A DNA stretch of 64,000 bases from Microbotryum violaceum (GCA_001244265.2 CDLV01000007.1:1302001-1366000), one strand, 5' to 3'; shown: positions 1 through 33,000, counted from the stretch's first letter. Made by a program: numbers and translations. Notes: generated by a model not told the origin, from the sequence alone.

Positions 1-309
1 GGCCGCGGACGACGCCAACGAGCCGGACTTCTTATTGCGAGCTCCCGGGGGTCCCCTCGGCTTGGGTGGCAAAAGCTTGGGAGCATTCGTCGTAGGTGCC
101 GAAGCGGCCTCGTCGCCGGAAAAGTCGGGCAGTTGACCGTCGTAGCCGTCCTCGTCGTCCACGGTCGCACCGTTGCCGGTGGAGGGTGGGGCAGCTTCCG
201 CAGCGACGTCTTGCGCTTGCGGAGCAGATGAGGTCGATGCCGTGGCCGATGAAGTGGGATCTGCACTAGTCGAGTGCTCGGATGTGCGCGGTACATCTGT
301 GAATGCCAT
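1..309 (-). CDS. 5' part of a gene running off the window; low-complexity N-terminus, product unknown
   Basis: ATG at 309-307 opens a stop-free frame to position 1 (MAFTDVPRTSEHSTSADPT...DDEDGYDGQLPDFSGDE...KPRGPPGARNKKSG); divergent from the next gene. Confidence 0.5.
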   Translation of the reverse strand, partial: MAFTDVPRTSEHSTSADPTSSATASTSSAPQAQDVAAEAAPPSTGNGATVDDEDGYDGQLPDFSGDEAASAPTTNAPKLLPPKPRGPPGARNKKSGSLASSAA

Positions 310-28099: not shown

Positions 28100-28187
28100 T
28101 TACGTCATGCGCGACGCGTGGCGCACGCAGGCGCGCAAGCCCCCGCCCTCCCGCTGCACAAGCGGCCCCCCTTTATTTTTGACGCGT
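28100..28187. promoter_or_regulatory. CRE-like TTACGTCA and two MCB-like ACGCGT sites in the GAD1 / Rad33-like divergent promoter
   Basis: TTACGTCA 28100-28107; ACGCGT 28114-28119 and 28182-28187; these are short motifs in GC-rich DNA. Confidence 0.3.
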
Positions 28188-28299: not shown

Positions 28300-29856
28300 A
28301 TGGTGAGTACAACTGCTTCACCACAGGATCTGAACAGGGTGCCCGCTCGAGTCATCCCTCCGCTCACTCCCTCCCACCTCCCACCCCACGCCGTCACACC
28401 TCACCCAGGCGCGACCACGCGTCGCACGTGCCTCAACGTCGGCCAGCAAAGGCAGTGCACTCACTCCGGCTCAATCACGCTCCATTAACCGAGCCTTCGA
28501 CCTTGCCGCCTCGTTTTCGAGCACAAGAACAGCTCAGAGCGGTATCTCATCGAGGACCAAGAAGCGATCCCGGACGACGATCGCGTCTTCTACCGAGGAC
28601 GAAGGCGAGGATGAGTACGATATGGCCATTGATCCGAGTGGAACGTCCAACTCTCGAAACGATGCAATAGCGGAGAATGGATGGCAAGGAGGGGGTGGGG
28701 GGTTTCTGCCGGAAGGAGAAGAGGTAGATCAAGTCAACGGAGAAACGCCGACGACAGGAGGTGGATTCATTGTCGAGGATAACGACCGGGCAGCTTCCAC
28801 CATATCGCCTTACGTTGGTGGTGGCGGTGGCGGCGGCGGGTTCAAGGCGGAGGACAGAGAAATGGTCGATGCGGTTGGGGGCGGATTTCTCCCCGAACCG
28901 GAGGACGTACTTCTACTCGGAGGTGGCTTCGTACCCGAAGACGATGACGAAGGGATCCCAGAACTACCCGATCTACCCGATCTACCCAGCTTATCCAACT
29001 CGAACGACACAACTTTGCCATCATATAAAGATTCGACGAATCTAATTCCACTTCGGTCCATCCCCGTCGCGATCGCTTCGTTGAATCTGCCAGCGTCGGA
29101 AAATGATTTGATGGACCTCTTCAGCGATGTTGCGGTCCCGAATGAGGAAGGAGTTGAATGTGTGGCCAGAGAACGTTTCGTGGAGGTGTGTGAAGCGCTC
29201 ATGGCTGGAATGGACGACGAGGACGAGGATGCACCACCCGCGAGCGACGACGAAGATGATGATGAGGGGGATGCGTATGAAGATCGAGACGAATTAGTCA
29301 AACCGAGTCGAAGAAGATCGAATCGACGGTCGACTCGAGCGAATTATGTACAAGATGACGAGCCGATAGCCCCTCTCCCCGAAGATTGCGCTCTAGAGGA
29401 CGATGATGACGATGACGATGAGGAGTCCGACTTCGAGGATCTCAACGGGTCAGCCTCCAAGGGGAAAGTGACCGCCAGTGCTAAAAAGAGCAAGGGCAAA
29501 GGGAAAGCACGGACGACAAGAGCAGAGAAGCGAGATCCGAATCGGGATCTGTCGAAGCAGGAAGTCGAAGAGGCGCTGGACACGTTTGAGCTTTTCTTTG
29601 AAGGCAGTGTCGACAAGAGGCCGCTCAAGGACCGCGCGATCGCGATGCATGATCTTGAACGAGTGGCGAGGTTGCTGAACGAGGATTTGCCGGAAGATGA
29701 CGTGAGTGTGCCTGCCTGTCGAGATGGTGGATCATATTCCCTAATCCTAGGGGGCGTCCATTTTCACAGATCCGCGAGATGTGGGATTACGCTGCGTCGA
29801 CTCGTGGTGTCGTCGATTTAGAAGCATTTGCACGAGTAATTGCGCAAGCGCTTTAA
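28300..29856 (+). CDS. Centrin/Rad33-like protein with two degenerate EF-hand lobes and N-terminal GGGF repeats
   Basis: ATG|GTGAGT first exon; IPLRSIPVAIASLNL...VARERFVEVCEALM; EEALDTFELF...IAMHDLERVARLLNEDLPEDD|IREMWDYA...VVDLEAFARVI. Confidence 0.65.
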
Positions 29857-30050
29857 TGTTACCTTTCCATCGTGTACCGCACCGCCACCGAATCGATACC
29901 GTCTTGCACAACAAAAAAACTATTTGACATCACATAGAGAAAGCCGTTCCGAGGTCGACCGCCTAGAATAGAATCCGTAGAAGTACTCAGAAGAAACAAG
30001 CGCGTGAGAACCAGATCACTCCCAATTGTTCACCATCAAAGTCAACACAA

Positions 30051-33000
30051 TCAATCTTCATCCATCTCGTCCGAGTCCGAGTCAACCGCTTTCCGTCTCC
30101 GCGACGCTCTCGTCGCCCCCGGTTTGTTCTTCACTTCCGCCTCGACCTCGACCTCGACCTTACTCCCCCTCGTCCTCTTGGCCCGAGCCGAAGTCGGTGC
30201 CGCCGAATCCGCACCCTTCTTTTTCGGTGTCATCGCCTTCTTCCCCTTCCCATCCCTCAGAGGGGACTTATTCTCGACCTTTTCCTCCACCTCTTCTGGC
30301 TGTTCCTCCATCTCCTCATCCTCATCCTCACTCTTCTTCACCCCATTCGTCGACCGCAACCCCTTCCTCTCATAAGCCGGCCTCGCCTTGGGCGGGCTCT
30401 TGACCCTCTTATTCTTCCTCTGCCCATCCACATCCAGCTCCGCCTCCTCATCACTCGATCCGACCTCTTCATCACTCTCCTCTTCCGCAGAGGAATCGAA
30501 TGAATCCCGCTTCGGCTTCTTGGCCTTCTTCCCTCCCGTCGTAGAAAGCGCCTTGAGCTTGGGCGACGCCTTGGGTTTAGGACTCCTCCTCTTCTTCGGT
30601 ACGGTCGCAGCCGGCAACACGCTTCGGATTTTGATCGTCGGCCTCACCGAAGCCAACAGGTCGTCGGTGAGGTAAACGGTATCCATCACCTTCTTCTGCG
30701 TCGCCTTGTCAGGCATCAACTTGAAAATATCCGAAGGCATCGTCACCCCATGAGGGAACGTCGGTAAAGGCCAACCGTACGATTTGGCGACATTTTTGAT
30801 CAGGTGTTGCGCCAGTTCCGAAAGGAGGTAGAGGTTGGTGTTGTAGGCGTCGGAGTGGGCATCACGCATGGTCTTGACTTTGAGCGCAAGGTGGAACAAA
30901 TAAGGAGCGTTCTCCTTCGTCGCGAGGCACTCGAGGTAGAATTCGATGTATCTGCGTGACCAAGATCTTCTTCAGCACAAGTACAATGTCAATGTCAGAC
31001 CACGGGGTCCTTCGGACTCACTTGGCCATCGTAGCGATCTCGCCCTCATCATGTTCCTCGCCTTCGAAATCAGGATGATGCGCCAAGAGATGCAACAACC
31101 TCACAAAAGGATGTTCAAACTGCGCCTGTCGCGCCGCCGGTGGGATCGCGTTCGCCCTCGTTTTGACAAAGTTCTGCACCGAGAGGCGCAACTCGACTTC
31201 GGGGTCATGCGCCGTCAAGAACAAAACCATATTGTACCTCGCTGCAGTGGTCGAGATTCGGTTCGAGCGCAAATACGTCAACAGCTTGTTGATGAAGCCC
31301 GATCGAACCTCGTAGCATTCATCCTGGGCCGTTCTGGCCAGCAACTCGAACGAACGAGCGATCGAGCCAGAATAAGCGGTGCACGTCGCGAGCTTAAGCA
31401 TCGAGTGCGCCGCCGCCAGTCGTAGTCGCGAGGCCGTCGAAGGCGTGTACTTGCTCGTGTCTTCGTCGTAGACTTGCAAAAGCGGCCATAGCATCTTGAA
31501 CACGGGTTGAGCGACTTGTTCAGCCGAGTCCGTATCGGCGTTGGCGAGGCATCGGTTCGTGAAGAGCTTGACGACGAGTAGGCGCGCTTTCGCGAGCGGG
31601 TTGAGCTGATCATCCTCGACCCAGTTGAGGTCGTCGTGAACTTCACCCGGTACGATCTTGCGGTTGAGGATCTCCAAAGCCAAAGAGGTGACGTCCTCGC
31701 TCTTCGTCTCGAACGCACCAACGGCATGGCGCACCACCCGAGCCAAAGCCGACAGGTGAGCGACCAGCGACTTCCCCTCGGCTGCCCCAATCAAGTCGGA
31801 CAAGTCCTGGACGAGATCATCGGCGGCTTGTAACCGCGCCGTATCGAGAGCGACGATCGTCGCTGCATGCTTGGCCTGACGCTCTTTCTCCGATCGTGCG
31901 AAATGAGCCGCTCGTTCGGCGAGCTTCTTGTCGATTGAAACAGAGCGTTCCGTCTTGCTGATTCGACTGAGAGCGTGCAAGGCGATCTCGACGAGCTTGT
32001 CATCCTTGGCCGTCTCGCCAAACAGAGCTTTGGTTAATTCAGCCACGTGGGCCTTGTAAAGTACCGGTCTGTTGGCCGAGATGTACTCGAGCACGAGTGC
32101 GGCGTTGTTCGACGTCGTCTGGCCGTCGGGTCCTGTGCGAGTCCGCAGCCGCTTGAGCAGCGTCGGAATCGACGATCGATTGATCAAGAGATAAGCGCTG
32201 GATTGGATGAACCAGTTGAACGTCTCGACGATACTCGAATTGATCTGTTCAATCCGGCGCGCATACTCTCGTTGACACTTGAGCATCGTCTTGAGGTCCG
32301 ACTGAGGGTCGAGGAGCTGCTTCGTCAACTTGTACAGTTGGCCTTCGTTGGCCTTGGCGAATTTTTGCAGGTCCTCGGCTGTTTTGGGCGGGTCCCCGCT
32401 CAAATTGGCGATGGCTTGGATGATGACCTTGAGGCGACCCCTGATCTCGTCTTCATCCTTGTCAATGACGCCACCGTTGTACCTCTCGCAAGCGGCGATG
32501 AAGGCGTCGTGGGCCGAGGGCCGACGAGTCGCCAGCTTGGTCATACTCAGGATCGTCGCGAGCTGGTCCTGCGTCAGGGCGCCCAAGACGAGCAAGAAGC
32601 GATCGACCCACGCCTGCTCATCCTCTTCCTTCTTGGGTTGAGGTACGATGTAGTGCAATAACGTCGACTCGATCAAAGCGCGCACCGAGTTTTGCAGGGG
32701 CACATCACCGCCGGTCTTGATCAGTTCAAGCAGGCTCCCCGGGATCCACCCAAATTGATCGACCGCGTTCGCATCGCGCGATTCGATCTCGGTGTACGAC
32801 AAATCGTAGAGGCGACCGAGGCAACGGAAGGAGAGCGCTCGGATTGCCGGTCTGCGATCCCGGCAACGTTCGCTGAGGGCTGCGAGCGTTGTTCGGTCGA
32901 CGTGGTGAAGCGCCACTTCGTACTCGATCGTTTCAAACACTGCGACGGCAGCATATCGCACCCTATCGTCGGCGTCGAGCATCACGTTACCGATCATGCC

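Follow-up and report, generated by a model that had tools for sequence, protein, structure and literature searches.

A divergent centrin paralogue of Microbotryum carries an array of XPA-like GGGF motifs within an EF-hand loop, and the same motif recurs on fungal Rad4 tails

Analysis of a 64,000-nucleotide stretch of the Microbotryum violaceum genome (GCA_001244265.2 CDLV01000007.1:1302001-1366000; hereafter the window) revealed a three-exon gene on the + strand, at 28300-29856, whose 460-residue product we call GGGF-centrin. The protein is a divergent centrin paralogue, with four EF-hands in two lobes and without canonical calcium loops, and a long insertion in the loop of its first EF-hand carries five GGGF motifs that resemble the peptide by which XPA binds ERCC1 in nucleotide excision repair (NER). 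We place GGGF-centrin in excision repair mainly because the same motif recurs on fungal Rad4, the XPC counterpart, beside the helix that a centrin would hold. Tentatively, and at a little less than an even chance, we propose that it is a Rad33-like partner of Rad4 whose loop pre-loads Rad1-Rad10, the counterpart of XPF-ERCC1. Papers are cited below by PMC number, each for an excerpt of its text.

An array of GGGF motifs within the first EF-hand

The protein is composed of the following parts, given with their positions in the window.

28466..28540, + strand: helix A of EF-hand 1, residues 21-45 (AlphaFold2, pLDDT about 90-95; structure alignment)
28559..28579, + strand: basic stretch KKRSR opening the insertion (consensus PxxKRR in the 110-member alignment A2)
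28694..28723, + strand: motif 1, GGGFLPEGEE, residue 97 (translation)
28757..28786, + strand: motif 2, (T)GGGFIVEDND, residue 118, with the exact XPA core TGGGFI inside (translation; XPA motif per PMC3488251, PMC2034474)
28832..28861, + strand: motif 3, GGGFKAEDRE, residue 143, degenerate (translation; comparison with M. saponariae)
28877..28906, + strand: motif 4, GGGFLPEPED, residue 158 (translation)
28919..28948, + strand: motif 5, GGGFVPEDDD, residue 172, next residue E (translation)
29042..29206, + strand: remainder of the N-lobe (strand, helices B, C and D), residues 213-267 (AlphaFold2; fold alignment; conserved columns)
29207..29554, + strand: disordered acidic/basic inter-lobe linker, residues 268-383 (pLDDT mostly below 50)
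29555..29850, + strand: C-lobe, EF-hands 3 and 4, residues 384-459, spanning intron 2 (profile, AlphaFold2, fold alignment)

An AlphaFold2 model made with the 110-sequence alignment predicted with confidence (predicted local distance difference test, pLDDT, about 90-95) N-lobe helices at residues 21-45, 216-226, 232-242 and 255-271 and C-lobe helices at 384-398, 414-423, 430-440 and 449-459. Because helix A precedes the motifs, the array is an insertion of about 165 residues in the loop of EF-hand 1; residues 59-175 are mostly below pLDDT 50, lack secondary structure and are predicted to be disordered. This arrangement is general in the family: 431 of the 456 motifs in A2 fall between helix A and the next strand, of the 101 rows with helix A, 100 have motifs inserted in this loop, and the helix A residues I27, A30 and F31 are kept in 95, 93 and 101 of 110 aligned members, respectively. 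The basic stretch that opens the insertion is a possible nuclear localisation signal, and the sequence RRSTR within the linker is conserved across Microbotryomycetes.

Four of the five motifs have the GGGF-hydrophobic core followed by acids. The exception is motif 3, which lacks a hydrophobic residue after the phenylalanine and reads GGGFIAED in the M. saponariae orthologue. The array is well beyond chance: in 20,000 shuffles of the complete 460-residue orthologue P0003 the number of GGF never exceeded three, and in 20,000 shuffles of residues 73-185 of P0003 the number of GGGF never exceeded two. In a genome census, DNA matches to GGGF-hydrophobic-x-acid were near chance in number (24 versus 18 for a control pattern); four of them lie inside the GGGF-centrin gene, which forms the sole cluster, and none of the 20 outside it had a second motif in the same frame. 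One of these outside matches, GGGFLCDEMGMGKT, is helicase motif I of a SNF2-type helicase (L048:1252-1950, at G000:C11:1010761), not a disordered segment; we take this helicase, by its looks, to be Rad16.

Kinship to centrin, and a possible likeness to Rad33

Comparison of the model with solved structures pointed to centrin. Model range 19..269 aligned as a single EF-hand lobe (6tj7_A; Z score 8.9, root-mean-square deviation (rmsd) 1.9, 67 aligned). Taken as a whole, the model aligned best with Cdc31 of the TREX-2 complex (4wpx_D; Z 10.1, 150 aligned over both lobes), with an rmsd of 13.9 because the lobes are free relative to each other; generic EF-hand proteins scored within 1 Z of the Cdc31 match. 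The top Foldseek match was centrin-2 with an XPC peptide (2ggm_A, E value 1.2e-3). When the profile of A2 was compared with solved structures, five centrins led (72-74.5 bits; centrin-2 at E 1.1e-19), through the C-lobe, and the best calmodulin followed at 63.4 bits (E 3e-16). Similarly, among eight EF-hand loci of the genome, an ordinary centrin (L009, G000:C9:1298812) scored closest to GGGF-centrin, in a comparison of scores rather than a tree. This centrin gene is separate from that of GGGF-centrin, for which reason we rejected GGGF-centrin as the Cdc31 orthologue of the genome; a calmodulin is also present.

The query protein matched no Pfam family, with a weak match to EF-hand_7 in 39 of 110 members. 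In a single-sequence search of solved structures, centrins came no higher than E 0.7 and 3.2; when a 14-sequence profile of the N-lobe was compared with solved structures, the best E was 0.47 and no centrin matched. An earlier model from 32 sequences, in which the C-lobe was weak and for which Foldseek gave nothing below E 0.08, was superseded by the 110-sequence model. A PROSITE-like EF-loop calcium pattern had no match in the query, and 15 of 162 family members matched it anywhere in their sequence. GGGF-centrin is probably calcium-free, to judge by its loops.

No sequence match to the Rad33 family was detected. PF08730 (Rad33) did not match the query, was not among the families listed for 32 relatives or for 14 N-lobe pieces, and was not among the first 25 of 64 Pfam families listed for the 110 members; a genome search with PF08730 was also empty, with a control that matched nowhere either. 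Yeast Rad33 was likewise not among the 20 solved sequences retrieved at E<=10 by the 14-sequence N-lobe profile. The Rad33 chain 7m2u_E does overlay the C-lobe (rank 34, Z 7.3, rmsd 2.1, 61 aligned, 18% identity), and this chain was built by homology on centrin-2 (PMC8184850). Because profile and PF08730 matches are lacking and the 7m2u chain is a centrin-2 model, we describe GGGF-centrin as a paralogue of centrin with a possibly Rad33-like function rather than a member of the Rad33 family; it could be an analogue or a very distant orthologue of Rad33.

An earlier note on this DNA had described a "Centrin/Rad33-like" protein with five GGGF motifs in its N-terminus, ahead of two degenerate EF-hand-like lobes split by an acidic/basic linker. 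The five in-frame motifs (+ strand, starting at 28694, 28757, 28832, 28877 and 28919) were recovered by translation and exceed chance by shuffling, and AlphaFold2 and the fold alignments agree with the two lobes and the linker. The placement of the array has to be revised, with helix A upstream and the motifs thus within the N-lobe, and of the two kinships the centrin one holds (profile E 1e-19; fold) and the Rad33 one lacks support from Pfam (no PF08730 match).

A conserved basidiomycete family

The family set comprised 162 proteins, namely 32 close relatives and the best 150 of 540 profile matches, minus one Rad4 (P0065). With the pattern GG[FY][ILVFM], which was defined after inspecting the family, at least one motif was found in 157 of the 162 members. 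The narrower GGGF[IL] is present in 108 of 162, and each of the 32 close relatives has two to eight copies of [GA]GG[FY]. Four of the five members without the motif appear N-terminally cut. The consensus of 663 family motifs is (G)GGF[LI][PVL][DE][DE]. The earlier note had staked its proposal on conservation of the motifs in orthologues, and conservation is what we found, in all 32 close relatives and in nearly all of the wider set.

Named members span all three basidiomycete subphyla: Pucciniomycotina (Microbotryum, Rhodotorula, rusts), Agaricomycotina (Coprinopsis, Kwoniella, Phaffia, Lentinula) and Ustilaginomycotina (Kalmanozyma). They are annotated as hypothetical, uncharacterised or EF-hand proteins, with two exceptions that look mis-annotated or merged. 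Some gene models of the family (P0039, P0179, P0045/P0433) are fused to unrelated neighbours (a long Pseudohyphozyma coiled-coil protein; a Cystobasidiomycete Mlh1) or named chloride channel, and these are probably annotation errors. The N-lobe of the family was found in 161 of 163 proteins (the family set plus P0065), the exceptions being a mis-modelled member and P0065 itself. An atlas search returned basidiomycete clusters at 0.91, and the closest of its clusters to bear a name, an ascomycete "Calmodulin" at 0.75, is a lead only.

These data bear on the possibility that the loop is simply drifting and that its repeats are low-complexity Gly/acid sequence without a function. Copy number does range from 0 to 10, the spacers are unalignable, and single-motif matches in the genome are near chance. 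We nevertheless consider this very improbable: the five copies were not approached in any shuffle, the motif persists in nearly all members at 23-45% identity despite diverging spacers, and the GGGF-centrin gene holds the only clustered set among the genome matches.

The same motif on fungal Rad4 tails

Only one of the best 150 of 540 profile matches belonged to another family: P0065, a Rad4 of Ascobolus immersus, which has 14 motifs behind its centrin-binding helix. We analysed two Rad4 sets: relatives of P0065 (best 120 of 359, mostly filamentous ascomycetes with one Lipomyces; P0065 and P0314-P0432) and relatives of the Microbotryum Rad4 (best 120 of 515, basidiomycetes, including P0220-P0313). 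Both consist of top-ranked matches with many close relatives among them, and neither budding nor fission yeast is represented.

All 120 ascomycete Rad4 proteins contained the motif, which lies downstream of the helix in each of the 117 with a detectable helix; the first motif follows at a median of 44 residues (44-45 across Rad4 tails). These tails hold 362 motifs versus 2.1 in shuffled tails, with the consensus GGGF[LI]P[ED][DE] and a logo near that of the GGGF-centrin family, and GGGF[IL] is present in 105 of the 120. Among basidiomycete Rad4 proteins, the motif lies behind the helix in 83 of 119 with a detected helix (98 motifs versus 0.56 in shuffled tails), usually as one copy of the flavour GGFLT[GT]ADD in Agaricomycetes. 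It is absent from the 26 closest rows (Microbotryum, Rhodotorula, Sporobolomyces and kin) and from the three rust Rad4 proteins listed. The Microbotryum Rad4 has the centrin-binding helix, RWKKLILGL (compare the W649/L652/L656 pattern in PMC3575800), and a tail without the motif, so that in the Microbotryum sensor complex the motifs would be on GGGF-centrin alone. The recurrence on Rad4 tails ties the motif to the damage-sensor complex.

An either/or placement of the motif, on Rad4 or on the EF-hand protein, was considered in 17 species pairs (Spearman -0.50, p 0.04) and is unused as support, the pairs being phylogenetically dependent and Rhodosporidiobolus having both. The C-terminal ends of Rad4 are also conserved, often as EWLMSD in ascomycetes and as [FY]GFE[YF]E[SD] in Sporidiobolales (P0194-P0226, P0314-P0432); they may correspond to the end of XPC that contacts p8/p52.

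The C-lobe itself retains the surface with which centrin-2 holds XPC. Residues L396, F397, L424 and M436 correspond to L112, F113, L133 and M145 of centrin-2, which are critical for XPC binding (PMC3737541), and these positions are kept as L, F, L and M in 90, 102, 100 and 71 of 110 rows, 12 rows being gapped at the last. On these correspondences the C-lobe pocket probably binds the Rad4 helix.

The C-lobe might instead sit on Sfi1-, Sac3- or Kar1-type helices, making GGGF-centrin a paralogue with a non-repair job at the spindle pole body, in TREX-2 at the nuclear pore or in the cell cycle, with repeats that are FG-like or convergent. The top fold match to Cdc31 of TREX-2, within 1 Z of generic EF-hand proteins, would suit such a role, as would the lack of a Rad33 match, and a weak hint comes from pairs of ACGCGT upstream of both the GGGF-centrin and the ordinary centrin genes. 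FG-nucleoporin repeats, with their F-G order and few acidic residues, differ in order and acidity from the GGGF motifs, and an ordinary centrin is already available for such jobs. The XPC-binding surface of centrin-2 also takes centrosomal partners (PMC3737541), which fits a non-repair role, but this explanation leaves the recurrence of the motif behind the centrin-binding helix of Rad4 unaccounted for, and we consider it unlikely.

Likeness to the XPA motif and the Rad10 groove

Human XPA fits the V-groove of ERCC1 through residues 72-GGGFILEEEEEEE-84, and the groove is lined by Q107, N110, L139-S142, R144, N147, H149 and R156 (PMC2034474). The core TGGGFI is essential for ERCC1 binding, F75A abolishes it, and the core is described in the excerpt as occurring in no other mammalian protein (PMC3488251). 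The Microbotryum Rad10 exons align gap-free to ERCC1 107-142 and 143-201 and keep Q107, N110, L141, S142, R144, Y145, H149, Y152 and R156. The Microbotryum Rad14 retains its own motif, NSKGGFLLENEEDD, so a GGGF-centrin bridge would add to, not replace, the usual route; no motif was found in the + frames of the 9 kb examined for Rad2/XPG. If the C-lobe does bind Rad4, then by analogy with XPA the motifs have a somewhat better than even chance of fitting the Rad10 groove.

A complex prediction with P0003 residues 92-182 and a stand-in ERCC1 central domain from a metagenome (L064, 49% identical to exon 4 of the Microbotryum Rad10) scored 0.07 with a mark of 0.34; it was run without alignments or folded controls and is counted neither way. 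ERCC1 sequences from apparently non-fungal metagenome loci (L064, L065 and L068-L070) keep the XPA-binding groove residues. Plants are not known to have XPA, and if some of these sequences come from lineages that lack it as well, another motif carrier may be present there.

The likeness to XPA could also be convergent, in which case GGGF-centrin would still be a Rad4-bound Rad33 analogue whose motifs engage a different repair factor (Rad23, RPA, Rad7-Rad16 or a surface of TFIIH such as Tfb2/Tfb5/Ssl2) or serve as multivalent stickers. The motif is located where C-terminal segments of Rad4/XPC contact TFIIH (PMC8184850), XPC 889-916 and 930-940 being built beside XPB/p52/p8 (PMC13394385); in addition, the proline at +2 is unlike XPA, and Rad14 keeps its motif. 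We judge this rather unlikely, as the invariant G-G-G-F-hydrophobic core with following acids is the part that defines XPA-ERCC1 binding, GGGF[IL] is common to most of the family and of the ascomycete Rad4 proteins, and the GGGF motifs do not fit the Tfb1-PH pattern of an aromatic residue, two acids and a valine (PMC3575800). A Tfb1-PH look-alike in the linker, DDDDEESDFEDL (ESDFEDL; 29408-29452, residues ~335-349), occurs in 2 of 163 proteins, both from Microbotryum, with 0.47 expected, and was rejected as a Tfb1-PH-binding motif for its lack of conservation beyond these two.

It is also conceivable that the motifs bind Rad10 and that the protein brings Rad1-Rad10 to another pathway (removal of recombination tails, cross-link repair), its C-lobe being bound to something other than Rad4. 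Pathway-specific adaptors such as Saw1, Slx4 and Rad14 are known to steer Rad1-Rad10 (PMC13578500). We regard this as quite improbable.

A proposed route for Rad1-Rad10

We propose that GGGF-centrin is a basidiomycete-wide counterpart of the Rad33/centrin-2 role in NER, with a docking loop added. Binding to Rad4, binding to Rad10 and hand-over are the steps that we infer. The C-lobe pocket would clasp the W-x2-L-x3-L helix at the end of Rad4, calcium-free, while the N-lobe would display the flexible loop; each motif would form a Gly-Gly-Gly turn fitting the V-groove of the Rad10/ERCC1 central domain, like XPA 72-76. The motifs could thus keep Rad1-Rad10 close to the lesion from damage recognition onward, until it is handed to Rad14, whose own motif would compete for the same groove. 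A precedent for an N-lobe that reaches later factors is that of centrin-2, which strengthens the contact between XPC and XPA (PMC3737541).

More generally, we advance a possibility whose chance falls somewhat short of even: that in many dikaryotic fungi the sensor complex itself carries XPA-type ERCC1/Rad10-binding motifs, on the Rad4 tail in filamentous ascomycetes and in the EF1-loop array of a centrin paralogue in basidiomycetes, recruiting or pre-loading Rad1-Rad10 at recognition, multivalently and in part independently of Rad14.

Several observations weigh against these proposals. Since the pocket serves centrosomal partners too, it does not single out Rad4, and neither PF08730 nor the N-lobe profile links GGGF-centrin to Rad33. 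Rad33 clashes with Rad14 on Ssl2 and Rad4 is released on arrival of Rad2 (PMC8184850), which argues against a lasting bridge; similarly, XPC and XPG do not coexist (PMC11445577). Yeast Rad14 binds surfaces of Rad1 as well (PMC13578500), so the groove is not the sole route, and retention of the Rad14 motif means that there is no missing function to replace. Two groove positions are changed in the Microbotryum Rad10 (F140>Y and N147>L), and the commonest fungal motif has proline at the position of XPA Leu77 (46% in the family and 65% in ascomycete Rad4). Finally, a full-length member from Coprinopsis cinerea (P0141, with GAGFIVED) has lost the motif, the single motif of basidiomycete Rad4 (GGFLT[GT]ADD) may do something else, and placement is not strictly either/or, with two to four copies in five Rhodosporidiobolus Rad4 proteins and eight in a Rhodosporidiobolus EF-hand protein.

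The XPA glycine motif is held to be the single handle for ERCC1-XPF, necessary and sufficient for recruitment (PMC6320978, PMC11445577) and unique among mammalian proteins in the excerpted account (PMC3488251). If the proposal is true, the NER wiring of these fungi would be unlike this human and budding-yeast scheme. Look-alike motifs borne by two subunits of the sensor complex in fungi suggest that the order of recruitment is not universal. In basidiomycetes, whose members of the family carry annotations of hypothetical or EF-hand protein only, GGGF-centrin is also a candidate for the role of Rad33/centrin-2; in the excerpt of a 2026 review of fungal repair, Rad33 is named for the budding-yeast scheme alone (PMC13451438). 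It is in addition a rare example of an EF-hand loop with a long array of motifs inserted, and even if its binding partner is a different one, the motif is conserved, unreported and common to Rad4 and a centrin paralogue.

Among the matches listed for open-licence PMC and bioRxiv main texts, no paper dealt with the family, mentioned any of five of its locus tags or reported GGGF motifs in centrins or in Rad4, in keeping with the earlier note, which knew of no description of such wiring. The kinds combined here, a centrin and an XPA-type motif, are known; the combination and the motif on Rad4 tails appear not to have been described.

Gene structure and neighbouring genes

The gene model consists of the following features.

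28300..28302, + strand: exon 1, the start codon alone (gene model; joint 28301>28408, GT..AG, in X10 and X11 contigs; product as P0166)
28303..28408, + strand: intron 1, 106 nt, GT..AG (gene model; skipped in X10 and X11 contigs)
28409..29701, + strand: exon 2, residues 2-432 (gene model; X10/X11 contigs)
29702..29769, + strand: intron 2, 68 nt, GT..AG (gene model; skipped in X10 and X11 contigs)
29770..29856, + strand: exon 3, residues 433-460 and stop, holding EF-hand 4 (X10/X11 contigs)

The reading frame that bears the motifs is open from 28334 to 29821, and the ATG at 28300 comes into frame as a start once the intron between its GTGAGT donor and the acceptor at 28408 is removed. Both introns are precisely skipped in contigs from two of four runs (X10 and X11), and the contigs of X1 and X6 are unspliced; the kind of run is unrecorded for all four, and none is on record as RNA. 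The start that the earlier note had placed at 28622 is an internal methionine, Met73, downstream of the ATG-only exon and intron 1, whereas its stop at 29856 and its second intron at 29702-29769 agree with the gene model and the X10/X11 contigs. The spliced protein is identical over 460 residues to P0166 (MVLG_04763) of Microbotryum lychnidis-dioicae and differs at three positions from P0003 of M. silenes-dioicae, and a genome search found a single copy of the gene.

The flanking genes, encoding a pyridoxal-dependent decarboxylase and PDS5, are both on the minus strand. The spliced X10/X11 contigs are 5.9 kb long and extend beyond 30100 toward the convergent PDS5 (window 29770-30100 and beyond), which suggests that GGGF-centrin and PDS5 have overlapping 3' ends, although a contig need not equal a single transcript. 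Two ACGCGT sites, which we take to be MCB-like, lie upstream of the GGGF-centrin gene (28114-28119 and 28182-28187), with another at 28417, and this is the single case within the window of a pair less than 250 bp apart. Two ACGCGT also lie upstream of the ordinary centrin gene (L019:224 and 238) and one upstream of PDS5 (window 34740), and none in the stretches examined of the Rad4 and Rad14 loci; the total of 19 in the window is at chance level.

Comparison with known systems

Among known systems, GGGF-centrin is closest to human centrin-2 of XPC-RAD23B-CETN2. The two share four EF-hands in two lobes, with the C-lobe giving the best sequence and fold match and the XPC-binding residues kept, and a W-x2-L-x3-L helix, as bound in XPC, is present in the Rad4 of the same genome. 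In contrast to the 172 residues of centrin-2, the 460 of GGGF-centrin include the EF1-loop insertion of about 165 residues and a disordered linker of about 115; it has no canonical calcium loop, its N-lobe is too divergent for a profile match, and it coexists with an ordinary centrin.

Its motifs resemble that of XPA/Rad14 (XPA 67-80, TGGGFILEE) in having G-G-G-F-hydrophobic followed by acids in a disordered segment, motif 2 being an exact TGGGFI and the groove of the Microbotryum Rad10 being conserved. They differ in number, with five copies rather than one, in the proline often found at +2, and in their carriers, a centrin-type protein and Rad4 tails. Fungal Rad4/XPC tails have 1-14 copies of the same motif, the first some 44-45 residues behind the centrin-binding helix, and the Rad4 proteins of Microbotryum, Rhodotorula and Sporobolomyces and the three rust ones listed differ in lacking it. 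We know of no GGGF array in Rad33. Saccharomyces Rad33 has no profile or PF08730 likeness to GGGF-centrin, yet it too is a divergent second centrin-like protein, standing beside Cdc31 (the two-protein arrangement in PMC3737541) as GGGF-centrin stands beside the ordinary centrin of Microbotryum.

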